In this document: piece after piece, positions 33,347 to 53,836 of the stretch
How positions within the stretch are numbered: the first letter of the stretch is position 1
How the letters are laid out: each line of letters begins with the position of its first letter
IMG/VR virus record: IMGVR_UViG_3300027833_000011
Source: a virus
Taxonomy: Duplodnaviria > Caudoviricetes
Length of the DNA: 64,000 nucleotides
Strand: one strand, 5' to 3'
Program-made: the position numbers and the translations under genes
The notes under the pieces: model-generated
Told to the model about the DNA's origin: nothing
Database searches by the model: none
Seen by the model: only the letters and a program-made list of their open reading frames with translations

Positions 33347-34156
33347 ATGAATAATTATTACAAAATTTTAGGATTAAGTAAAGACGCAAGTCAAGAGGAC
33401 ATTAAAAAGACTTATCGTAAACTTTCTAAAAAACACCATCCAGACATGGGAGGTGATGATGAAATGTTTAAAAAAATTAATGAAGCTTATAGTGTGTTGG
33501 GTGATGAGAAAAAAAGAAAAGAACATGACAATCCAAGACGTGGTTTTGATGATATATTCTCGTCAGGTGGTTTCGGTTCTGATTTTATGGAAAGTATGTT
33601 CAATCAAAGTAGGTCTCGTAGATACAGAGGTTCCGACATAAAAATTGACTTAACTATCACGGTAAAAGATTCTATGATGGGAGGTGAGAAGGAAGTGTCA
33701 TATTATCGTATGACTAAAGATTTCAGAGAAGAAAGACGTAGTATAAAGATTAATATACCACAGGGTGCAGACGATGGTAATCTTTTCAGGGTTTCAGGTG
33801 GTGGTAATCAAGGGGAGTCCTCACCGGGTGATTTAATTATAATTATTAATATAGGTTCAGATGGAGTGTATTCAAAATCAGGTTTCAATCTTTTTTATAA
33901 CTTAGAGTTGAACCCTTTAGAGATATTAACAGGTAAAGAGGTTACGATTGATTTATACTACAGTAAGATTAAAGTAAATATCCCATCGTGTGTTGATATG
34001 AATAAACAAATGAGAGTTAAGGGTAAAGGATTTAAAACACGAAGAGGTTTTGGTGATTTGTTTATTACATTTAAAGTAAAAACACCAAAAGAATTATCTG
34101 AATATGAATGGAGATTAGTTGAACAACTAAAAAAAGGAGACAATTTTAGAGATTAA
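33347..34156 (+). CDS. dnaJ: DnaJ-family co-chaperone (class II, no Zn finger)
   Basis: NYYKILG, KKHHPD, FKKINEAY.VL, G/F-rich linker, C-terminal substrate domain (GSDI...; GDL...). Confidence 0.9.
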   Translation: MNNYYKILGLSKDASQEDIKKTYRKLSKKHHPDMGGDDEMFKKINEAYSVLGDEKKRKEHDNPRRGFDDIFSSGGFGSDFMESMFNQSRSRRYRGSDIKIDLTITVKDSMMGGEKEVSYYRMTKDFREERRSIKINIPQGADDGNLFRVSGGGNQGESSPGDLIIIINIGSDGVYSKSGFNLFYNLELNPLEILTGKEVTIDLYYSKIKVNIPSCVDMNKQMRVKGKGFKTRRGFGDLFITFKVKTPKELSEYEWRLVEQLKKGDNFRD

Positions 34157-34653: not shown

Positions 34654-34992
34654 TTAACCGTTATTAAAATCTATATAACTTACGGCAGATATCCTCATAT
34701 TATCTTTATATTTAACCTCACCAATTAAAACACCTTCGAGGTTGTAAAATTTCCATTTACCTGAACGTTTACCTTTATAAAATTGTGCGGATGCTTGTAA
34801 TTTACCATTTGTGTGGTAAGAATACCAATATCCGTCTTTTTTACCGTCCCAGTAGGTACCTTTCTCTAATAATTTACCATCGGTACTTGTGATTGTGACT
34901 TCTGAGTAACCATTTTTTGGAATGTTTTGACCGTATGATACAGTCATAATAAGTAAACCTAATAAAATTGTCATTAATTTTTTCATCTTCAT
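34654..34992 (-). CDS. secreted MORN-variant repeat protein
   Basis: Signal peptide ending SYG-Q; repeats GKKDGYWYSYHTNGKL, GKRSGKWKFYNLEG. Confidence 0.75.
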   Translation of the reverse strand: MKMKKLMTILLGLLIMTVSYGQNIPKNGYSEVTITSTDGKLLEKGTYWDGKKDGYWYSYHTNGKLQASAQFYKGKRSGKWKFYNLEGVLIGEVKYKDNMRISAVSYIDFNNG

Positions 34993-35157: not shown

Positions 35158-36036
35158 ATGTTTAGTTATATAGGAGGAAAAAGTAAAATAGGTAAATGGA
35201 TTAAAGAGTTTATACCTACAGATATGGAAACTTATGTGGAACCATTCAGTGGTGCTTTTTGGGTTTACTATAATTTAGATTTGGCGTTATACCCAAACTT
35301 AAAGACAGTGGTATATAATGATTTTAATAAGGTAAATGCTAACTTATTTGCTTGTGTAAAGAAATATGGTGAGTTTTACGAGTTTATTAAAGACATTCCC
35401 GCTCAAGAGAAAGATAGGTTTGAAAGATACCAAAAAGGAGCGTTTGAGGACTTTGATTTTGACCCAGACACCCCTAATTTTCAAAAAGGTTTGGAGTATA
35501 TCTACGTTGTGACTCAAGTGTTTAGTGGGATTAGACCTGAAACGTCTAACTTCATAGATTTAAAGGGTAAATACAATTCTAAATTCAACTCATTTAGAAA
35601 TAAACTAAATAATCCCAAGTACTATAAGCATTTTCAAATGATAACGCATGTTAAGAATGAGGATTTTGAGGATATCATTAATGAGTTTGATTCACCAACC
35701 ACATATTTTTATTTAGACCCACCATATTGGAAAACTGAGGATTATTATTCTAACCAAGACTTTGACGTGACAGACCACAAAAGACTTTCAGAGGTATTAG
35801 GTCGTATTGATGGTAAATATAGTCTATCTTACTACGATTTTGAGTTATTGAAAGAATACTACCCAAAAGACACCCATAGATGGACGAGTAAAGATTACGC
35901 AAAGGCTGCAGGTGCGGTATCAGGTAAAAAACAGACAAAGGCTAGTGAGTTATTGATTATGAATTATAATGATACAACGTGGCAAGATGTTATTTTAGAA
36001 AAAGAAAATATTACAGACGATACATTTGGAAAATAA
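35158..36036 (+). CDS. DNA adenine methyltransferase (D12/Dam family), orphan
   Basis: YIGGKS, YVEPFSG, VYNDFN, YLDPPY, LSYY, ELLIMNY. Confidence 0.9.
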   Translation: MFSYIGGKSKIGKWIKEFIPTDMETYVEPFSGAFWVYYNLDLALYPNLKTVVYNDFNKVNANLFACVKKYGEFYEFIKDIPAQEKDRFERYQKGAFEDFDFDPDTPNFQKGLEYIYVVTQVFSGIRPETSNFIDLKGKYNSKFNSFRNKLNNPKYYKHFQMITHVKNEDFEDIINEFDSPTTYFYLDPPYWKTEDYYSNQDFDVTDHKRLSEVLGRIDGKYSLSYYDFELLKEYYPKDTHRWTSKDYAKAAGAVSGKKQTKASELLIMNYNDTTWQDVILEKENITDDTFGK

Positions 36037-39537: not shown

Positions 39538-40347
39538 ATGGCAGACTTATTAAAATATCACAAATCTTTACCTTTAACAGAACAAGAAATATTAGACAGA
39601 GCACCATCTGTTTTTGCAACAGAGGCTTCAGGTCACGTTTCAGAGAAGTACACTTTTATTCCAACAACTCAAGTTATTGAGGATATGGAGGAGTTAGGTT
39701 GGAAAGTATATTCGGCGGAACAAAGAACTGCTAGAACTAAGGTTAGAAACACACACACGAAACACTTATTACGTTTTCGTAACGACACTCTAACTGAAGT
39801 GTTAGGTTGTATTCCTGAGATTACACTAACCAACTCACACGACGGTCGAAACGCATTTCAATTCTATGTTGGACTATACAGACCTGATATTCAAAGTTCT
39901 TTTGTAATTCGTCACGAAACGTTGAATGGTTTACGTATCAAACACCAATGGTACACGTTAAATGAGGTAAGAGAAGTAACACAAAAAGTTATTAATCACC
40001 TACCAGTTTTAATCGAACAGGTACAATTATTAAACAACACGACAATCGGTAAAACAGAACAAAGAGAATACGCGATGAGAGCTATGATGACACGTTGGGG
40101 TAAAGACTACCCTTCAATTTTACATAGAGTCGTTATGAATCCGATTAAAGGTGAAACAGTGACATTGTGGGACGCATTTAACAACGTACAAAACCATATT
40201 CTAAACGGTGGTATCACTTACACATTAGCGTCTAAACGACAACAAACTGTAAGAGCGATTACAAACGTCGACTTAAAAATTAAAATCAACGAAGAGTTGT
40301 GGGAAGTGACCCAAGGGTATGTCAAACTAAAACAAAAAGTATATTAA
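39538..40347 (+). CDS. DUF932/DUF945-family protein
   Basis: APSVFA, VSEKY.FIPT, KHLLRF, NSHDG..AF.FYVG.YR, LWDAFN.VQ..I..GG, INEELW. Confidence 0.8.
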   Translation: MADLLKYHKSLPLTEQEILDRAPSVFATEASGHVSEKYTFIPTTQVIEDMEELGWKVYSAEQRTARTKVRNTHTKHLLRFRNDTLTEVLGCIPEITLTNSHDGRNAFQFYVGLYRPDIQSSFVIRHETLNGLRIKHQWYTLNEVREVTQKVINHLPVLIEQVQLLNNTTIGKTEQREYAMRAMMTRWGKDYPSILHRVVMNPIKGETVTLWDAFNNVQNHILNGGITYTLASKRQQTVRAITNVDLKIKINEELWEVTQGYVKLKQKVY

Positions 40348-40403: not shown

Positions 40404-42062
40404 ATGGTTGAAAATCTGTATAAGAATATTTTTGATGAACATAGGATTACGTATCACGAAGTGTCTAATGATGCGACTTTAATGCGTAACATAGAGGACC
40501 ATAAAACCAATGCGTCTAGAATGGATGGGTATAGTAAACATAAGTTATATTATTTTACCGTATCTAAATATTCAGAAAATAAAGAAGACTTTATTGATGA
40601 ATACGGTAATATGTTATGTGACTTGGAGAATACTCGAAGAACTGTTGTCGTTGAAAAAGAGGGGGATAAGGTTAGGTTATCTTTTTACTATTATAAGAAA
40701 TTTAGGAAGGTGGGTAAGTTGTATTTTGCTAAGATGTACGACCGACATTATCTGACCTATAATTTAAAGACTAATAATTTTTATATGACAAACGTTATGA
40801 AGTCGATAGGTTATAGAAGAAGTAAACGAATACGTTGTAACCCAACACATAATATTAGTCGAGTGGTTGAACACATTCATGACTTTAAGTTTACTAATGA
40901 TGATTCAGAATATCTTAAAGTGTTTATGAGGGCTTTAGACCCTGAAACTAACTATGGTAAAGACAAGTACTTAACATTTGAAGAGGCATTCATAAGATTC
41001 TTTGTTGGTAGAAATGGTATTAAAGGTCCAAATCATATGACATCGTTAATATTGAGAAATTATCCAGGTAAGAAGTCCTTAAAGAAGAATGGGTATAATC
41101 TAATACATTCAATATTAGATAATGTTGGGTTGAAAAGTAAGTACTTCGTTAGTTTAATGAACAACTATAAACCTGATTTAAGTTATTTGATTCAATATGC
41201 TAACCTATTAGGGTTAAAATATGTTAAGAGTATTAATAAGGAGTTTTTTAAGAAAGAGAGGGCTCCGTATGAAACCTTTGTTGATTTAAAGAAAAAGTAT
41301 TACGAAGATACGGAAAATTATCCTATTTACCAAAACATTACTGATTATGATAGAAAAAACATAGTTAAGGTTATCAACGATTTTACGGTTACGAGTCCTG
41401 ACACACCAATTAATAGTACACGTTCTATGAATATCACAGGGCTGATAAATGACCATATTAGGATTATGGATAACTTAAGAACGTTTGAGGAGGATATTAA
41501 ATTTAAGTCTAAGACTTATTCAGAATTTGAGCAAGAACACGTTAACTATAGTGAGAAGTATTCGTTATATAGAAATTCTGAGGAGATTTACTACCAATAT
41601 GATGAACAAATAATTAATGGTTTAAAGAATTCACAAAAAGGGTATGAGTACGTATTATTATCGAATGATATGGACTACATAAATGAGTCTACACATCAAA
41701 ACAATTGTGTTAGAACTTATATTGATAAGTTTGATTCTATAATCATTTCTGTTAGACTTGGGGGTAAAAGAATAACGACTGAATTCACATACAAAGGTGA
41801 TTGTATTCAAAAGAGAGGGTCTTATAATAGTGAAGTTGACGAATCTTTTAATGAGGGTATTATGGAGTTGGAACGTATTATGAAAACTATTTATTTGAGT
41901 GGGGGGTTAAAACAACCAACTATCAAAATAAAGAATAAACTTAACGGAGACGAAAAACACTATACTATTAAAGAGTTAAAAACGAATGGGTATAGACGTT
42001 CTAAAGGTAATGAAGGTTTTTTGGATTTTGTCGACGATGAATTAGATTTTATGTTAATATGA
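40404..42062 (+). CDS. PcfJ-like domain protein
   Basis: C-terminal YINES.HQNNCVRTY...IIS.R; start ATG 40404 preferred because 40299 overlaps the terminator. Confidence 0.6.
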   Translation: MVENLYKNIFDEHRITYHEVSNDATLMRNIEDHKTNASRMDGYSKHKLYYFTVSKYSENKEDFIDEYGNMLCDLENTRRTVVVEKEGDKVRLSFYYYKKFRKVGKLYFAKMYDRHYLTYNLKTNNFYMTNVMKSIGYRRSKRIRCNPTHNISRVVEHIHDFKFTNDDSEYLKVFMRALDPETNYGKDKYLTFEEAFIRFFVGRNGIKGPNHMTSLILRNYPGKKSLKKNGYNLIHSILDNVGLKSKYFVSLMNNYKPDLSYLIQYANLLGLKYVKSINKEFFKKERAPYETFVDLKKKYYEDTENYPIYQNITDYDRKNIVKVINDFTVTSPDTPINSTRSMNITGLINDHIRIMDNLRTFEEDIKFKSKTYSEFEQEHVNYSEKYSLYRNSEEIYYQYDEQIINGLKNSQKGYEYVLLSNDMDYINESTHQNNCVRTYIDKFDSIIISVRLGGKRITTEFTYKGDCIQKRGSYNSEVDESFNEGIMELERIMKTIYLSGGLKQPTIKIKNKLNGDEKHYTIKELKTNGYRRSKGNEGFLDFVDDELDFMLI

Positions 42063-42652
42063 AAAAAACAATAACAATGATTTTATGTATGTGTATTGTT
42101 ACGGCATTTACATTAAGAGAACAACAACAATATGAGGACGTAACGATAACTACAGACATATACACAGTATTATACTCTCAAGAATATGAACAACCACTTA
42201 AGTTAGATTATATAGTACAATGTCCTGGTGGTGGTGTTAGTAGAAAAGGGTTGGACTTCTATGGGGTTGACAGTGTGAAGACTTCAAACAATAATGATTA
42301 TCGTAACAATGTTTGGGATAAAGGTCATTTAGCGCCAGCGGCTGATTTTAATTGTAGTCGAGAGATGTTAAAGAAAACATTCTCGTATTTGAATTGTGCT
42401 CTACAACACGAAGGTCTTAATAGAGGACCGTGGAGATTCTTGGAAGAATACGAAAGAGAGTTGGCGTTAGAAAATGATACGGTTAAGGTTTCTGTGATAG
42501 TACATTTCGATAACGACACTGTATTACCAACAGGTGCTAAGATACCATCAGATTTCACTAAGATAATTATAGTGAATAATGACACCTTAACCTACAAATT
42601 CCCAAACAAAAATGTTAGAGGTAAAAAATGGGAAGAATTTGAGGTTAAGTAA
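42059..42652 (+). CDS. secreted DNA/RNA non-specific endonuclease (NucA family)
   Basis: Signal peptide; WDKGHLAPAADF, N..LQHEGLNRGPW..LE. Confidence 0.88.
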   Translation: MKKTITMILCMCIVTAFTLREQQQYEDVTITTDIYTVLYSQEYEQPLKLDYIVQCPGGGVSRKGLDFYGVDSVKTSNNNDYRNNVWDKGHLAPAADFNCSREMLKKTFSYLNCALQHEGLNRGPWRFLEEYERELALENDTVKVSVIVHFDNDTVLPTGAKIPSDFTKIIIVNNDTLTYKFPNKNVRGKKWEEFEVK

Positions 42653-42697
42653 TTTACAACCTTAATATTATAAGGTATTATTATAAAAACAAAAATT

Positions 42698-43018
42698 ATG
42701 AAAAAAGTATCATACAGTGAATTTAAAGAGTTACAATCTGGTAACAATAGAATATTCGTAGATTTCTACGCCGATTGGTGTGGACCATGTAAAATGATGT
42801 TACCTGTATTAGAAAAGGTGTCTGATGAAATGTCTGAGACTGGTGTGACCTTTGTTAAGGTTAACGCTGATGAAGAAAGAGAATTATCTGCAGAGTTTGG
42901 TGTTAGAGGGATTCCAACATTCGTTATGATTGACGAAGGTGAGGTTAAAAACAGATTCTCAGGTGTTAAGGGTAAAGCGGAATTAACCGAAAGTATTAAA
43001 GAAACATTCAATGTCTAA
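42698..43018 (+). CDS. trxA: thioredoxin
   Basis: VDFYADWCGPCK, GIPT. Confidence 0.92.
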   Translation: MKKVSYSEFKELQSGNNRIFVDFYADWCGPCKMMLPVLEKVSDEMSETGVTFVKVNADEERELSAEFGVRGIPTFVMIDEGEVKNRFSGVKGKAELTESIKETFNV

Positions 43019-43286
43019 AGACGTATTCCTATACACAATGGACGGTTGTCCTTACTGTCAAGAGGTTAAAACATTATTGGATAATGATAATGTTAAATAC
43101 ACTGAGAGAGATTGTGATGAATATGAAATGCAATATGAGATATTAAAATCTAATACTGAAAATAACGAATTTGTTCCTGCTTTTGAAATTAGGGATAATG
43201 AAAAAATGACTAAACGTTTCTTAGCTCCTGATAGAGATTTTGAAGAATTAGAACACGCGGTTTATTTAGTTAAAAAATACATTTAA
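43011..43286 (+). CDS. glutaredoxin-like protein
   Basis: YTMDGCPYC, VP. Confidence 0.8.
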   Translation: MSKDVFLYTMDGCPYCQEVKTLLDNDNVKYTERDCDEYEMQYEILKSNTENNEFVPAFEIRDNEKMTKRFLAPDRDFEELEHAVYLVKKYI

Positions 43287-43843: not shown

Positions 43844-44656
43844 ATGGAAAAAAAATACGAGATTAAAGTTAGAGACAAAGGTTTTAGCGTGTTACGTACT
43901 GATGACGTAATAGGGTTTAAAACATATACGGTTGTTAATGAGAATGACAGTAACTACTATACCGTATCAGTTGCTAATAACGCAACCTTAAAAGAATCTA
44001 ATAATGATGAGGTTTTTTATGTTATCAAAGAGAAAGGTAGAAGTATTATTAGAGAAAATATAAACACAATCTTTCCAACCACAATTGTAAATTACTTTCT
44101 ATCGAATTTAAATGAAAATGAAGAGTATGTGGGGGAAGGTAATTCAGAAGAGGTTTTAGATTACCTTTACGACACTTTCAATGGATTAAGTTACCGAGTA
44201 AGACATGTGATATATTACGACAACATAAAAGACTCTTTAGATTATGAATTCTTATTGATTATTGGAGGTGATTTGGATACTGTATATCTTTCAGTTAAGG
44301 AAAACGGTGATATTTTTGTTGTTGACAATGACGAAGTTCATTTGTTAGGTGATACAGGTTCTCCTGAGTATTTTGAAAAATCTTTATCTACTTACTTAAG
44401 TGGTATGGAACATTTTACTGCGATGGTTAATGAGGATACGGATGATGAGGTCATCATTGAGTCATTTAATCAAACACACGGTATTGTAATAGAAAATAGA
44501 ATCGCTCAAATATACAATAAGGATACTTCAAAATCTTGTGGTTATATTGATAGACGTAATGGCGTTTATAATTTAACAGAAGAAGTTAAATTATATGGGG
44601 TTGATAGATTAAAATCTATTGTTGAAAACTACGAAGTAAAACAATTACTTAAATAG
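43844..44656 (+). CDS. hypothetical protein
   Basis: 270 aa; TATTTATA upstream. Confidence 0.6.
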   Translation: MEKKYEIKVRDKGFSVLRTDDVIGFKTYTVVNENDSNYYTVSVANNATLKESNNDEVFYVIKEKGRSIIRENINTIFPTTIVNYFLSNLNENEEYVGEGNSEEVLDYLYDTFNGLSYRVRHVIYYDNIKDSLDYEFLLIIGGDLDTVYLSVKENGDIFVVDNDEVHLLGDTGSPEYFEKSLSTYLSGMEHFTAMVNEDTDDEVIIESFNQTHGIVIENRIAQIYNKDTSKSCGYIDRRNGVYNLTEEVKLYGVDRLKSIVENYEVKQLLK

Positions 44657-44658
44657 TA

Positions 44659-45210
44659 CTATTGTCTTATTAGTAGGTCTATAAAGTGTTCTTTAAGGTC
44701 CATTCTTTCTTCTTCGGGGTAACTACACCACTGCCAAGTAATACTTGATTTAATCGTGTCTATTTCGGTCTGAACTTTCTTACAGTTTTTCTCTAAGGTA
44801 TCTAAATCTTTCTTATCAAATTCTTTTTCGATATCAATATCTAATTCGTCTGATAACATAACCAACTCCATTAGATTTAAATTTTCATATGCTTTAGCTG
44901 CTTTTGAAAATATCTTATTCATCTTTTCGTCCTTAATAACATCAGGATGTGTTTTACGTGAGATATTACGGTACAGTTCTTTTGCGATTTTAGAGTTGTT
45001 CTTAGGTTTAACTTCTTCGTTAAGTTCATCGATTAGTTTTTGACCCTCAGCGGATGCCTTATCAATACCATCATGATTAGACTCGTCCATTAAGGTGTCT
45101 TTAAAGTCCTCCATAAATATTGAGGTATATTCCTCCTGTTGTGAAGTTACTTCGTCTAACTCTAATTGGAGGTATTTGTATTTAAACACCCATTTTTTCG
45201 TTATGTTCAT
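44659..45210 (-). CDS. J-domain-containing protein
   Basis: KELYRNISRKTHPD...FSKAAKAYE flanked by coiled coils. Confidence 0.7.
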   Translation of the reverse strand: MNITKKWVFKYKYLQLELDEVTSQQEEYTSIFMEDFKDTLMDESNHDGIDKASAEGQKLIDELNEEVKPKNNSKIAKELYRNISRKTHPDVIKDEKMNKIFSKAAKAYENLNLMELVMLSDELDIDIEKEFDKKDLDTLEKNCKKVQTEIDTIKSSITWQWCSYPEEERMDLKEHFIDLLIRQ

Positions 45211-45211
45211 A

Positions 45212-46189
45212 TTAAAATATAATAAGTTCTTTGGTTTTGTCTAACTTTTCCCATTGAAATTTATCAGGATTATCAAAACCGTTAATATAGTAATCTTTAT
45301 AATTTGGTGTGAAAAAATCTAACTTATCTTTCATTTGTTTAATTGATAGAGGAAAGACATCCATTACACAACTATAAATATTTTTCATATCGTATTTCTC
45401 AGTACCAAATGAATTAATATTAAAACTTAATGGTGTAATTGAACTTTGATTAAAGTTAACACTTATTAAACATTCGTCCATTAATGAACTATTAACAATG
45501 TTTTTAGACATATACCTCAAATAAAGAGGTAGTATTCTATTTGGTGATAATGGGTCAGAACCAATGAATTGATTATTGGTTGTTGGTAATTCGTGATAAC
45601 TATGTAGAGTATTATTATTGGTATAGAACTCACTATGGGTTGTATATGTATTTAAGATACTTACAGATGGTTTCTCTAAGTTTGGGTCGTCGAGTCTAAC
45701 AATATTTAAAACGTCTTTCTTAGACACACTCCTGTCGTTAGTCATAACAGTAATTGATATGACATTACATTCTTTAGTATCGTATGTTAATTGACAAATA
45801 TGTGAGTGACTTTTACTCAACCCGTCTACAATTTTTTGAGAGATGTGTTTACCAATGGGGTATGAATTGACTACGTTTTTTGTTGAGTACCCATAATAGT
45901 TACCATAATGTAGTGTGTCAGAATAAATTGGCGATTTTTGTTGAAAAAAATTAATCTCGGAGAACGTATTAAATAACTCAAAATTATCTTGGAAAAGGTA
46001 TGATTTCAAATCAATTAAGTTTGTAGTAGGAAGATAGATATTACAGTATTTACCAAATATTGAAGTATTTATATTGTAAGGAAACAGATTGTTACACTCA
46101 ATGAAGTAGTCCACAATAGATTCGCTAATAATATTAGGAATAGATTGTTTAGTTTTAACCGAATAAGACTTGTAATTTCTGTATCTCAC
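45212..46189 (-). CDS. divergent S-adenosylmethionine synthetase (MetK) homolog lacking catalytic motifs
   Basis: Collinear with MetK throughout (GYST.N; LRYMSKNIV..L.DEC.I; SFGTEK; F.L..M.D.LD...P.Y; FQWEKLDK); GHPDK, GRK and GGGAFSGKD motifs eroded; GTG start. Confidence 0.75.
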   Translation of the reverse strand: MRYRNYKSYSVKTKQSIPNIISESIVDYFIECNNLFPYNINTSIFGKYCNIYLPTTNLIDLKSYLFQDNFELFNTFSEINFFQQKSPIYSDTLHYGNYYGYSTKNVVNSYPIGKHISQKIVDGLSKSHSHICQLTYDTKECNVISITVMTNDRSVSKKDVLNIVRLDDPNLEKPSVSILNTYTTHSEFYTNNNTLHSYHELPTTNNQFIGSDPLSPNRILPLYLRYMSKNIVNSSLMDECLISVNFNQSSITPLSFNINSFGTEKYDMKNIYSCVMDVFPLSIKQMKDKLDFFTPNYKDYYINGFDNPDKFQWEKLDKTKELIIF

Positions 46190-46277
46190 TTTTTTTTTTA
46201 ATAAATGTATATAAATTATACTACATTATAAAGGAAGTGATATTTATAAAAGTATTAAAAAAGTAAAAAGATAATAA

Positions 46278-49786: not shown

Positions 49787-52303
49787 ATGGCAAACACACA
49801 ATTTCAAGATTTAGCATCACTTATTGCGGGTAAGTTGAATTTAATCATTGGTAAAGTAAACACCAACACATCAGGAAGGACTTCATTAGGAGTTGCAATT
49901 TCTGACGAGGCGGCTACACGTTTATCAAATGACAATTCAATCGTAGCATTAATCGACGCTAACGATGCGAAAGACGTATCATTAGAAACAAGAGTTTCAG
50001 GTGAAGAGGTCTTAAGAGTAAATGCTGACGGTTCTTTAACAACAAGAATCGGAGCGGAAGAGGTAGCAAGAGCGAGTGCTGATTTAGCGGCGTCTCAATC
50101 TGTTACTGCAAAATTAACATCAGTAGATTCGAGAGTAACTGCTGAGGAGTCTTCAAGAGTTGCGGGTGATTCATCTGTAACAACTGCAATGACTAATAAA
50201 ATTAATCAAGTTGAAGCGGATTCAATTTCTGCTGACGGTTCATTAGCAACTGCAATCGGTAACGAGGCGACTGCTAGAGTAAACGCTGACGGTTCTTTAA
50301 CAACAAGAGTATCGAACGAAGAAGTAGCAAGAGAAAACGGAGACGTTTCAATCGCGGCTTTACTTTCGACTGAGGTTGTTGATAGAACAAACGCAGTATC
50401 TGCTGAAGCAACGGCTAGAGTTAATGGAGATAATTCATTAAACTCTAAAATTTCTTCTGAGACATCTGCAAGAGTATCGGCTATATCATCAGTAGATGTA
50501 GAATTAGCTGGTGGAGTTGGTTCAATTGAAACAAGATTATCAAACGAAGAATCGACATCAGCATCGGCTGACGCTTCTATCGTTGTTGCTTACCAAGCGG
50601 CTGACGTATCTTTAACTTCAAGATTATCGACTGAAGAAGAAGCAAGAGCTAACGGAGATTCTGCATTAGAGACTTCATTAAACTCTGAGATATCTTCAAG
50701 AGCATCAGGTGATGTGGTATTAGATGGTAAAATCTCAACAGAAGTTGTAAGAGCAACGGCTGCTGAAGGTTCATTAAATACTAAAGTATCTGTTGAAACG
50801 GCAAGAGCGATTGGTGTTGAAGGTTCATTAGAAACAAGAATTTCTTCTGAAGAGGAAGCTACAGTATCTTTAGCTAACTCATTACAGGTTTACATGTCTG
50901 ACGAAGTTGAGTCAATTGATGTAAGAGTATCAAACGAAGAATCGACATCAGCATCAGCTGACGCATCTATCGTTGTTGCTTACCAAGCTGCTGACGGTGT
51001 ATTAGAAACAAGAATTTCTAATGAGGAAGTTGCAAGAGCAAACGGAGACACTGCATTAAATACTTCATTAACATCTGAAATCTCTTCTAGAGTATCAGGT
51101 GACTTATCGTTAAACAACAAAATTGATTCAGAAATTTCAACTGAGGTTATCGCAAGAGACTCAGCAATTACTGGAGCGATTAACGACTTAGTGGATGGTG
51201 CAGGTGATGCATACAACACTTTAAGTGAATTACAAGCAGAATTACAAGATAACGATAGTGATATCGCTACTATCTTAACTGCACAAGGTTCTTTAAATAC
51301 AAGAATTGGGGCTGAAGAGTCTGTATCTGCATCGGCTGACACATCTATCGAACTTAGAGTTTCAACTTTAGAGAACGGTAATACATCAGCAGTAGATTCA
51401 TTAGATGTAAGAGTAACGGCTGAAGAGTCAATCTCAATTTCATCTGACGCATCTTTAGAGACAAGAATCTCAAATGATGAAGACGCATTAGCATCGGCGA
51501 AACTTTCATTAGGAAACGCTGACGGTTCATTAGAAACAAGAATTTCTGAAGAAGAATCAGTACAGGCATCTGTAGGTTCATCTTTAACAACAAGAGTTTC
51601 AAACGAAGAATCGACAAGATTGGCTAAAGATACTTCAATCGAGGTGGCTTACCAATTAGCTGACACTTCATTAACAACAAGAATTTCTACTGAAGAAGTT
51701 CTTAGACAAGCTGGTTTAAGTATTTTAGCTTCTGATATCGAAGATGAAGAAGATAGAGCAATTGCAGTTGAAGGTTCGTTAAATACGAAACTTAACGCTG
51801 AAATCGCAACAAGTTCTACGGCTGACGCATCGTTAAACACGAAGGCTAACAGTTTAGAAACTAAATTTGACGGAGAAGTTGAGACTGAATCAATCGCAAG
51901 AGTTTCAGCTGATACTTCATTAACATCAAGATTATCAACTGAGGAAGTTGCAAGAGTTAACGGTGACGCATCTGTATTATCAGCGGCAACATCATCAGCA
52001 ACGGCAGTATCAGTAGCACTATCAAGTGAGATTTCTTCAACTAATGCAGATTTCGTATCATCAGACGCAAGAGTACTTGCTGAAGAAGGAGCGAGAGGAG
52101 CGGCAGACACGTCATTAACGACAAGATTATCGTCTGAAGAAGTTGCAAGAGCTAACGGAGACAATGCGATTAACGTAGACCTTACATCATTAGAAACAAG
52201 AGTTTCAACGGATGAGGTTGAGTTATCAAGTCACATTGCTTTCCAAGGGACAGTTGCTGAATTCTCAACTGTATTAGATGCTAACATTATAGCATTAAGT
52301 TAA
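49787..52303 (+). CDS. long coiled-coil fibre protein with 18/11-residue repeats
   Basis: ADxSLxTRxSxEExARxx units over about 800 aa. Confidence 0.8.
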   Translation: MANTQFQDLASLIAGKLNLIIGKVNTNTSGRTSLGVAISDEAATRLSNDNSIVALIDANDAKDVSLETRVSGEEVLRVNADGSLTTRIGAEEVARASADLAASQSVTAKLTSVDSRVTAEESSRVAGDSSVTTAMTNKINQVEADSISADGSLATAIGNEATARVNADGSLTTRVSNEEVARENGDVSIAALLSTEVVDRTNAVSAEATARVNGDNSLNSKISSETSARVSAISSVDVELAGGVGSIETRLSNEESTSASADASIVVAYQAADVSLTSRLSTEEEARANGDSALETSLNSEISSRASGDVVLDGKISTEVVRATAAEGSLNTKVSVETARAIGVEGSLETRISSEEEATVSLANSLQVYMSDEVESIDVRVSNEESTSASADASIVVAYQAADGVLETRISNEEVARANGDTALNTSLTSEISSRVSGDLSLNNKIDSEISTEVIARDSAITGAINDLVDGAGDAYNTLSELQAELQDNDSDIATILTAQGSLNTRIGAEESVSASADTSIELRVSTLENGNTSAVDSLDVRVTAEESISISSDASLETRISNDEDALASAKLSLGNADGSLETRISEEESVQASVGSSLTTRVSNEESTRLAKDTSIEVAYQLADTSLTTRISTEEVLRQAGLSILASDIEDEEDRAIAVEGSLNTKLNAEIATSSTADASLNTKANSLETKFDGEVETESIARVSADTSLTSRLSTEEVARVNGDASVLSAATSSATAVSVALSSEISSTNADFVSSDARVLAEEGARGAADTSLTTRLSSEEVARANGDNAINVDLTSLETRVSTDEVELSSHIAFQGTVAEFSTVLDANIIALS

Positions 52304-52405: not shown

Positions 52406-53836
52406 ATGACACAATACCAACAATTAGCAGGTCTAATCGCAGGAAAGTTAAATTCGATAATTACGAAAGTTAACGTTAACACTGGTGATGTAGACGCTAT
52501 CCAAGGAGGTTCATTAGATTCTAGATACTATACAGAGACAGAAGTTGATACATTCATCAGTAACTCCACTGCGACTACATTAAATTTTAATGCGGACAAT
52601 GGAGTTTTTACGTTAACAAAAGGAGACGGTTCTACAATCACAGTTGATTTAGACGGTAGGTTTACAGATAACGCTCATGCTGATGCAATGAACCAAGGAG
52701 TCGCTACTACAGATACACCAAATTTTGTTGGTGTGCAGGTAGGGACATTAAACGTATCTGAATTGACAACGGACTTAGTTCCAGACACTGATTCAGCATT
52801 AGATTTAGGGGAAACTGACAAACAATATAACGATTTATATTTATCAGGTCAGATTTACCAATCAGGTGTACCGATTCAATCGGCAGAATCAAAGCCTTTA
52901 GTTTATCACGAAAACTTTACGGGTGACGGTTCAACAACTGAATTTACAGTGTCTAAAACATTAACTTCGTTAATTATGACGGACATTAATGGTTTAGTTC
53001 AGGAAAAGGGTGAGGATTTCACACACACAGATTATTCGAAAACTATAACATTTGCAAACGCACCACAATCGGGTGAGGTTGTACAGATAACATATTTCTA
53101 TGGTGGGTCAAAACCTATCATGAAGTACGAGACATTTACTGCTAACGGTACTAGTGATAGTATTACAGTAAGTGATTCGTTATCACAGGTTGTTTATGTT
53201 GAGATTAATGGTTTAGTACAACTTAAAGGAGATAACTACAACACAACGGGTAGTTTAATCGAATTTGAGGGTACTCCAACATCAGGTTCTGAAATTGCAG
53301 TACTTTACTATAATACAGGTGACTCATCAGTATCGGGAACATCTAATAAACTTGCTAAATTTGGGGTTGACGGACTTTCAGTTGTCGACTCATTAATTAG
53401 TGAAACAGGGAATACCGTTTCAATCACAGGAAATCTATTCGTAGGTGGTGATACCACAACAGTAAATTCAACAGAAGTTGAAATTGCTGATAAGGCAATC
53501 GTATTAGGAGCAGGAGCACAGTCTTCTGAACTTGCTGCGGCACCATCAGGAATAAAAATCGGTGATGAAGATTCTCCATTAGCGTCCATTTTATATAATG
53601 GAAGTGTATGGAATTTTGACGGAGGTATCGGTTCTTCTACTGTAATTAATAAATCACAATCAATAACTTTCTCAGGAGATGTTAGTGGTTCTGGTACGAT
53701 TACAAATTTAGGGGATATTGAAATAACAAATATGGACTTTAATACATCGGCGTTAAGAACAGAAATGGACGACTACATCGGTACGTATATACAATTCCGT
53801 AATGATTTAAATACGGGATTAAACTCGTTAGTATAA
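52406..53836 (+). CDS. fibre or baseplate-associated protein with two tandem beta-sandwich repeats
   Basis: FTGDGSTTEF...INGLVQ..G.DF...ITF..AP..G repeated twice; N-terminus paralogous to the 49787 protein. Confidence 0.7.
   Translation: MTQYQQLAGLIAGKLNSIITKVNVNTGDVDAIQGGSLDSRYYTETEVDTFISNSTATTLNFNADNGVFTLTKGDGSTITVDLDGRFTDNAHADAMNQGVATTDTPNFVGVQVGTLNVSELTTDLVPDTDSALDLGETDKQYNDLYLSGQIYQSGVPIQSAESKPLVYHENFTGDGSTTEFTVSKTLTSLIMTDINGLVQEKGEDFTHTDYSKTITFANAPQSGEVVQITYFYGGSKPIMKYETFTANGTSDSITVSDSLSQVVYVEINGLVQLKGDNYNTTGSLIEFEGTPTSGSEIAVLYYNTGDSSVSGTSNKLAKFGVDGLSVVDSLISETGNTVSITGNLFVGGDTTTVNSTEVEIADKAIVLGAGAQSSELAAAPSGIKIGDEDSPLASILYNGSVWNFDGGIGSSTVINKSQSITFSGDVSGSGTITNLGDIEITNMDFNTSALRTEMDDYIGTYIQFRNDLNTGLNSLV

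Follow-up and report, generated by a model that had tools for sequence, protein, structure and literature searches.

A phage pseudoenzyme derived from MetK and encoded beside a J-domain protein

What does a phage do with an S-adenosylmethionine (SAM) synthetase that has kept its fold and lost its active site? The question is raised by a 64,000-nucleotide stretch of the virus record IMGVR_UViG_3300027833_000011 (Duplodnaviria; Caudoviricetes), here called the window, which encodes a homolog of the SAM synthetase MetK, here called pseudo-MetK, directly followed by a gene for a J-domain protein. An earlier note on this DNA had proposed that pseudo-MetK is a dead subunit that may poison the oligomers of host MetK or, alternatively, a repurposed structural or ligand-binding fold. 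We favor, with some reserve, the possibility that pseudo-MetK is a neofunctionalized MetK-fold protein that acts with the Hsp70/J-protein system of the phage, and with ClpP in a sister lineage.

Homology to MetK and the state of the active site

The gene is located as follows.

45212-46189, minus strand: pseudo-MetK, 325 amino acids (aa), with the MetK fold from end to end and all catalytic residues gone

The open reading frame (ORF) is intact, as the earlier note had it; it starts with GTG, has 325 codons and ends with a TAA-type stop that its coordinates include. Its relatives carry an ATG at the same codon, and their N-terminus likewise reads MRYRNYKS. A Pfam scan detected PF02773 (S-AdoMet_synt_C) at residues 208-315 (E 3.8e-18, 66 bits, with a cut-off of 25) and neither PF00438 nor PF02772, the N and M domains. 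With HMMER, residues 207-320 aligned to residues 261-374 of E. coli MetK (E 2.3e-12, ~33% identity), which reproduced the two stretches that had been aligned to MetK by eye. Plain sequence search and Pfam recognize only the C-terminal third of the protein. The claim of an end-to-end alignment was confirmed by profile comparison and by structural alignment. When the profile of 14 pseudo-MetK family members was compared with that of 17 true MetKs using hhalign, residues 15-320 aligned to MetK 17-377 (probability 99.8%, E 2.9e-30, 301 columns), and the N-terminal 200 aa alone were collinear with MetK 17-179 (probability 76%, E 2.3e-5); the two proteins are collinear over ~95% of their length. An AlphaFold2 (AF2) model obtained with a 71-sequence alignment had a predicted local distance difference test (pLDDT) value of 87 and a predicted TM-score (pTM) of 0.86. 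Foldseek matched this model to solved MetKs with a TMq of 0.83-0.86, and its TM against the MetK cluster of the ESM Atlas was 0.87. By AF2 and Foldseek, pseudo-MetK has the three-domain, pseudo-threefold beta-alpha-beta-beta-alpha-beta fold of the methionine adenosyltransferases (MATs). Structure searches of the AFDB clusters and the ESM Atlas returned MetKs only, and a search of BFVD returned no structural match. The protein is ~55 residues shorter than MetK, and its C-terminal domain is markedly MetK-like (40% identity of the consensus vs 16-23% for the remaining protein). The full-length homology of pseudo-MetK to MetK is thus established.

With MetK/MAT (EC 2.5.1.6; E. coli structures 1FUG, 1RG9 and 7LL3) pseudo-MetK shares the three-domain fold and a homologous C-terminal domain, but it lacks the catalytic, metal and triphosphate residues together with the loops that carry them. 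The reported loss of the GHPDK, GAGDQG, GRK and GGGAFSGKD motifs was verified residue by residue. Numbered as in E. coli MetK from Met1, the family carries the following at the catalytic positions.

H15: T or S, variable
D17: Q
K18: S
E43: N, invariant
GAGD loop with D119: deleted
K166: S or I
D239: variable (S in the list of residue replacements)
R245 and K246: N and N
GGG259-261: T/S-N-N
K266: S
K270: S
D272: N or S

Within the GGGAFSGKDxxKxD motif only F263, G265, D267, P268 and R273 are left. The same holds for the ligand. Among the 18 residues of E. coli MetK that contact SAM within ~4 Å in structure 1RG9 (list from PMC8727953, Fig. S2), a single one is identical in pseudo-MetK (T227, itself poorly conserved) and three are deleted. 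The adenine-stacking F230, as well as D238, E55, Q98, D118 and K269, are lost or variable, and the alignment gaps fall on the MetK loops with D118, D163/K165 and D238. Judged by its residues, pseudo-MetK cannot be a SAM synthetase, and binding of SAM in the old pocket is very unlikely, because deletion or replacement has removed the loops and residues for binding ATP, methionine, metal and SAM.

These losses bear on the proposal that pseudo-MetK is a sponge or a sensor for SAM or a SAM derivative, e.g., the SAM-AMP of type III CRISPR, or that the old pocket hosts an altered chemistry. The ancestor of the fold was an enzyme that binds SAM, conservation persists at about half of the former active-site positions, and SAM-AMP signaling occurs in Bacteroidota. 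However, hardly any SAM contact is retained, the metal and triphosphate ligands are all lost, and the bulkier Asn, Tyr and Gln that replace the small Gly and Ala of the cavity probably fill it. We regard this proposal as highly improbable.

Selection on the family and the former dimer interface

The pseudo-MetK family comprises 14 full-length homologs of 318-327 aa with 41-98% identity and 68 invariant columns, and all frames are open. An exhaustive HMMER search of 1.84 billion representatives returned two pseudo-MetK clusters (at 50% identity), followed by a gap to the true MetKs at E 5e-12. All members come from related marine large phages, probably of Bacteroidota, and metagenomes from many studies, be they marine, seawater or coral-reef, contain near-identical pseudo-MetK DNA. 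A scan of IMG/VR with the patterns of the family found no relative, and INPHARED held no near DNA match; its tblastn hits were true MetKs only, over the C-terminal third. The nearest catalytically intact MetK (P0016) lies in a cellular context and does not indicate a donor.

The ratio of non-synonymous to synonymous substitution rates (dN/dS) of pseudo-MetK was calculated by the method of Nei and Gojobori; L008, L013, L015 and L010 are relatives. Between the genes of the window and of L008 it was 0.107 overall, 0.129 over the N-terminal 206 codons and 0.073 over the C-terminal part; it was 0.114 between the window and L013, and 0.136 between L015 and L010.

Over pairs, with dS up to saturation, dN/dS was 0.05-0.15 in the N-terminal and C-terminal parts alike, so the constraint on the N-terminal part, where the likeness to MetK is gone, nearly equals that on the MetK-like part. 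Neutral evolution, for which the earlier note had suggested a dN/dS check in relatives, is ruled out (~0.1). It might be argued that pseudo-MetK is the decaying relic of an auxiliary metK gene, since its catalytic residues are all lost and it is ~55 residues shorter than MetK. Nevertheless, the frame is intact in at least 14 homologs that have diverged to as little as 41% identity, the invariant positions are many, and near-identical copies recur across marine metagenome studies. Intact frames and a dN/dS of 0.05-0.15 mean that pseudo-MetK is not a decaying gene; the selection analysis refutes the relic, to which we give practically no credence. We conclude that pseudo-MetK is a pseudoenzyme, i.e., it is homologous to an enzyme, has lost the catalytic residues and is under purifying selection. 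Among the same relatives, identity is 47-59% for pseudo-MetK, 66-75% for the J protein, 76% for the product of a neighboring gene, orf177, and 66-76% for a 476-aa protein encoded further along; the rate of divergence of pseudo-MetK is about that of the fiber proteins.

Where the constraint falls was analyzed on the old active-site and dimer faces. Near-invariance in the pseudo-MetK family was more frequent at positions with 85% or higher conservation in MetKs (26 of 56) than at the others (83 of 269; odds ratio 1.9, p 0.03). Another residue now stands at half of those 26, e.g., E9K, E43N, Q120Y, K166S, G241F, G244N, G260N and K270S. The active sites of MetK are composed from two subunits, and the large dimer interface is the slowest-evolving part of the MATs; E. 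coli and human MAT agree at 38 of its 51 residues, and bacteria and archaea at 12 of 51 (PMC8727953). We mapped the 51-residue interface string of E. coli MetK (PMC8727953, Fig. S4) onto the family, which placed 44 positions and left 7 unplaced. The pseudo-MetK family keeps four of these 44 and has deleted six, whereas a diverse set of MetKs retains the consensus at 31. At 18 of the 44 positions, at least 13 of the 14 sequences agree on a residue that differs from that of MetK, for the most part Asn, Tyr, Ser, Arg or Lys. By these residues, the old interface face has acquired a new surface, which has since stayed fixed. Conservation in the family is lowest in the central region (residues 111-206), and the GHPDK loop varies. 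Binding of nucleic acid through the Arg/Tyr-rich first strand was considered and dropped, the proteins being acidic to neutral (pI 4.9-6.8).

The state of the interface weighs on the proposal that the dead subunit co-assembles with host MetK, either through the large interface or as a pseudo-dimer docked on the MetK dimer, and so lowers or rewires SAM synthesis. Such a subunit could blunt SAM-dependent restriction-modification of type I or bacteriophage exclusion (BREX), and J/DnaK or ClpP could pry apart or destroy the MetK oligomers. Dead paralogs of obligate oligomeric enzymes often pair with the active enzyme; the prozyme of trypanosomatid S-adenosylmethionine decarboxylase (AdoMetDC) is a dead paralog that acts on the active one. 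The C-terminal domain is markedly MetK-like, and the fold is preserved in full, as is its length. The sharing of active sites between subunits (PMC8727953) also favors the proposal, and MetK is a proven phage target, since the SAMase of phage T3 binds and inhibits it (bioRxiv 10.1101/2023.02.27.530186; PDB 8bb1). However, four interface positions kept and six deleted, out of 44, compare poorly with the 38 of 51 shared by E. coli and human (PMC8727953). Moreover, the phage has an enzyme of its own that needs SAM:

35158-36036, plus strand: D12-class N6-adenine DNA methyltransferase (Dam-type, SAM-using), PF02086 E 4.1e-21

This gene lies 9 kb from pseudo-MetK and is also present in relatives L001-L006. 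No known anti-restriction or anti-BREX gene was recognized at the locus in domain scans, which did not include a search with PADLOC. Co-assembly with nascent MetK would also be limited if host gene expression stops, as it usually does in lytic infection. From the earlier note, then, the full-length dead homolog stands and the repurposed fold fits the data, while the poisoning of host MetK is weakened by the interface, by the methyltransferase and by the lack of anti-defense neighbors. We consider co-assembly with host MetK unlikely.

The J-domain partner and a second dead family beside ClpP

Pseudo-MetK is the first gene of a two-gene minus-strand cassette that lies inside a long plus-strand array. 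This pairing, which tells most about the locus, is absent from the earlier note. The remaining elements of the cassette, and a further J-domain gene, are as follows.

44659-45210, minus strand: J-domain protein, 183 aa, J domain at residues 67-112, His-Pro-Asp (HPD) motif invariant
46190-46277, no strand: divergent intergenic region, 88 bp, AT-rich, between the cassette and a gene for an 851-aa fiber-like protein
33347-34156, plus strand: canonical DnaJ (Pfam DnaJ E 2e-22, DnaJ_C E 6e-32), HPD intact

The J gene starts 1 nt after the pseudo-MetK stop, and the two genes are probably co-transcribed. The J protein matched Pfam DnaJ with E 1.4e-5 and 25.5 bits, just under the gathering score of 27.8, and its family profile matched the J domain of CbpA with E 1.8e-5. 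By these matches the 183-aa protein has a J domain with helix II, the HPD loop and helix III, and KTHPD is invariant across 14 J-protein sequences. The N- and C-terminal flanks are highly conserved, are unique to this J-protein family and match nothing else. With a dN/dS of 0.04-0.07, the J protein is under tighter constraint than pseudo-MetK. The phage thus encodes at least two J-domain proteins, the canonical DnaJ and the specialized one.

The pair is present in every relative with enough contig, in the same orientation and 1-3 nt apart; in the most distant pair, pseudo-MetK is 41% and the J protein 65% identical. Six further loci, reached through orf177, also carry the pair, and a look by this route for relatives lacking the cassette found none, with both genes at every locus with enough sequence. 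When pseudo-MetK and the J protein were submitted to complex prediction with family alignments, no answer was obtained (score 0.00, with the mark at 0.32), which speaks neither for nor against binding.

The 88-bp region presumably houses the promoter of the cassette, although consensus promoter and terminator scans at the cassette did no better than on shuffled sequences. Directly before the GTG stands a run of ten A (A10), no Shine-Dalgarno sequence was found upstream of it, and Rfam returned no SAM riboswitch or other element near pseudo-MetK. The lack of a Shine-Dalgarno sequence and the A10 leader fit a Bacteroidota host. Bacteroidota are the predicted hosts of comparable large aquatic phages, which encode DnaK, DnaJ and ClpA (PMC12619734). 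Contigs in RNA libraries of four studies cover parts of the cassette in a strain that is ~95% identical, which is no proof of transcription. In contigs of such a ~95%-identical strain, from two RNA libraries, the A10 run (46190-46199) is one base shorter, a length polymorphism of the leader.

A second dead-MetK family was reached through a weak match (P0021). It consists of three clusters (P0021, P0165 and P0166) of 338-343 aa, and has lost D17, E43, D119, K166, D239, R245, K246, K270 and D272. Unlike pseudo-MetK, it retains the GHP motif and an N domain that Pfam detects. Like pseudo-MetK, it has glutaredoxin, PcfJ-like and DUF932 neighbors and runs opposite to the neighboring genes; the phages that carry it are more distant. 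Where pseudo-MetK has the J-domain gene, the second family has clpP, which begins 3-15 nt after the dead metK in both loci examined (L016 10001-11928 and L017 10001-11689), whose dead MetKs are 46% identical to each other. The Ser-His-Asp triad of this ClpP is intact (GMAASMG, MLHQ, RD), and in L016 a bS21 gene follows it. A quick maximum-likelihood tree groups both dead families as sisters (SH-aLRT 85), with a stem of ~1.9 substitutions per site leading to each. We found no description of this second family in the searched literature.

The ClpP pairing bears on a further proposal, namely that the function of pseudo-MetK is unrelated to its neighbors. On this proposal pseudo-MetK would be a repurposed scaffold, for instance a homodimeric assembly or structural factor for the adjacent giant fiber proteins, or would bind a neutral polar ligand, e.g., a sugar, with the J protein as its folding helper. 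Dead enzyme homologs of viruses are mostly reused for unrelated jobs, examples being the dUTPase-related tegument proteins of herpesviruses and M45/UL45, the inactive homologs of the ribonucleotide reductase R1 subunit. Asn, Tyr and Ser abound on the re-surfaced face, the cassette is divergent from the 851-aa fiber-like gene in all relatives, and the genes of the phage show a heavy investment in glycosylation. In addition, MetK is an obligate GroE client (PMC9950496). On the other hand, the ClpP pairing of the second lineage is left unexplained, ClpP being a protease and not a folding helper; the cassette lies on the strand opposite to the structural genes, and structure and feature searches point to no ligand or partner. 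We hold a function unrelated to the neighbors to be somewhat unlikely, though it is the strongest rival of the explanation that we favor.

The window has the features of phage DNA (30-40% GC, long co-directional gene arrays, an SbcC-like nuclease and fiber-like giant genes) and contains no tRNA. What lies convergent with the J gene differs between relatives: a 270-aa ORF in the window (43844-44656, plus strand), a gene for a 613-aa protein with a polyphosphate kinase 2 (PPK2) domain in L004-L006 (L004 11526-13367), and a 406-aa ORF in L010 (11035-12255). An NS-type DNA/RNA endonuclease gene (42059-42652, plus strand) is followed by thioredoxin-like and glutaredoxin-like genes (42698-43286), which were identified by synteny with L001 and L004, and this block (42059-43286) is conserved in all relatives. 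Upstream, a DUF932 protein gene (39538-40347, plus strand) precedes a gene (to 42062) whose 587-aa product has a PcfJ-like domain and matches NAPRTase_N weakly. In the distant phages of the second family these two genes also flank the dead-MetK slot, and they are a long-range synteny anchor. The 838-aa (49787-52303, plus strand) and 476-aa (52406-53836, plus strand) proteins have in common a conserved N-terminal stretch of ~25 residues, which may be a common attachment module of fiber-like proteins, and internal repeats are common to the 851-aa and 838-aa proteins. A small ORF at 34654-34992 (minus strand) has MORN-type repeats (Pfam MORN_2, E 1.7e-9).

A possible targeting module and its meaning for phage biology

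On the explanation that we tentatively favor, the old active-site and dimer face would have become a surface through which pseudo-MetK binds either to itself or to a new partner. Pseudo-MetK and the specialized, class-C-like J protein would be made together from the two-gene operon; pseudo-MetK would provide specificity, and the J protein would switch on the ATPase of DnaK at that site. During infection, the pair might then dismantle, hold or remodel one specific target. ClpP would be the partner at this slot in the sister lineage, with proteolysis in place of remodeling. Host MetK, recognized homotypically, would be one candidate target among several. Phages and plasmids offer precedents for the dismantling of specific oligomers by J/DnaK, such as lambda P-DnaB and P1 RepA. 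A J-domain protein of phage RB43 is reported to act through DnaK (Perrody et al. 2012, as cited in PMC12619734). This small protein, Rki, carries the HPD motif and works through host DnaK, and its likeness is to the neighbor gene at 44659-45210; it has no relationship to the 183-aa J protein outside the J domain, and is not paired with a pseudoenzyme.

Several observations weigh against this explanation. The link of pseudo-MetK to the J protein or to ClpP is gene adjacency alone; we infer the physical coupling of pseudo-MetK to the J protein or DnaK, as well as the existence of any target, and the targets that can be named are candidates only. MetK, whose fold is prone to aggregation, is a classic example of an obligate GroEL client (PMC9950496), and since its fold depends on chaperones, the J protein could be a mere folding helper that is silent on function. 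J proteins and ClpP act quite differently, and to read the same logic into the same slot may over-interpret two coincidences in a proteostasis-rich genome. The sister grouping joins two long branches, for which long-branch attraction is possible. Finally, the alignment behind the good AF2 model held true MetKs, so that the model is partly a homology model, and AF2 with a family-only alignment gave a poor one (pLDDT 55); even so, the latter, as a weak independent check, had the same order of secondary structures over the first 180 residues, and its top Foldseek match was still MetK (E 3e-7, low TM).

A more specific form of the proposal is that the MetK fold serves as a target-recognition subunit, which homes on host MetK or another conserved oligomer and passes it to Hsp70 or ClpP. 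We judge this form quite unlikely. If true, it would be a "pseudoenzyme bait plus unfoldase or protease" system that dismantles a chosen host enzyme, and a new route to control the SAM metabolism or the SAM-dependent defense of the host.

Known systems resemble pseudo-MetK in part. The SAMase, or SAM lyase, of phage T3 (gene 0.3) is also a phage protein tied to the host SAM supply, which cleaves SAM and inhibits MetK, and it is the only established phage protein that acts directly on MetK (bioRxiv 10.1101/2023.02.27.530186). It differs in being an active enzyme of unrelated fold, and in that T3 lacks a SAM-dependent methylase, whereas the present phage has one. Pseudo-MetK has no homology to SAM lyases, its fold being that of MetK by Foldseek. 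Active, compact MetKs, often shortened, are encoded beside DNA methyltransferases by phages of Streptococcus (Javan), Faecalibacterium, Helicobacter and Erysipelothrix. These retain the catalytic motifs and have been interpreted as auxiliary suppliers of SAM, whereas pseudo-MetK has no such motifs and is partnered by a J-domain gene, not a methylase. The AdoMetDC prozyme, M45/UL45 and the dUTPase-related proteins are likewise dead homologs under selection for a non-catalytic role, in other folds and hosts; to our knowledge, none of these pseudoenzymes derives from MetK. Full-text literature searches for inactive MetK/MAT homologs of phages or viruses found nothing, and the paper on large aquatic Bacteroidota phages does not mention a dead MetK (PMC12619734). 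Pseudo-MetK is a MetK-derived pseudoenzyme, of which none was known before in the searched literature, in a new gene pairing.

MetK is among the most conserved enzymes known, and a dead copy under selection is unexpected. That two dead lineages occupy one slot, beside a J protein in one case and ClpP in the other, suggests that large phages with chaperones and proteases of their own also bring specificity factors for them; such factors have been proposed before, but were not assigned to particular genes. The pseudo-MetK/J pair is small, soluble-sized and directly testable. If its target is host MetK, it would be a second phage strategy against the SAM supply after the T3 SAMase, and a mechanistically different one; if its target is not MetK, it would be a clean example of an ancient enzyme fold re-surfaced for a new job.

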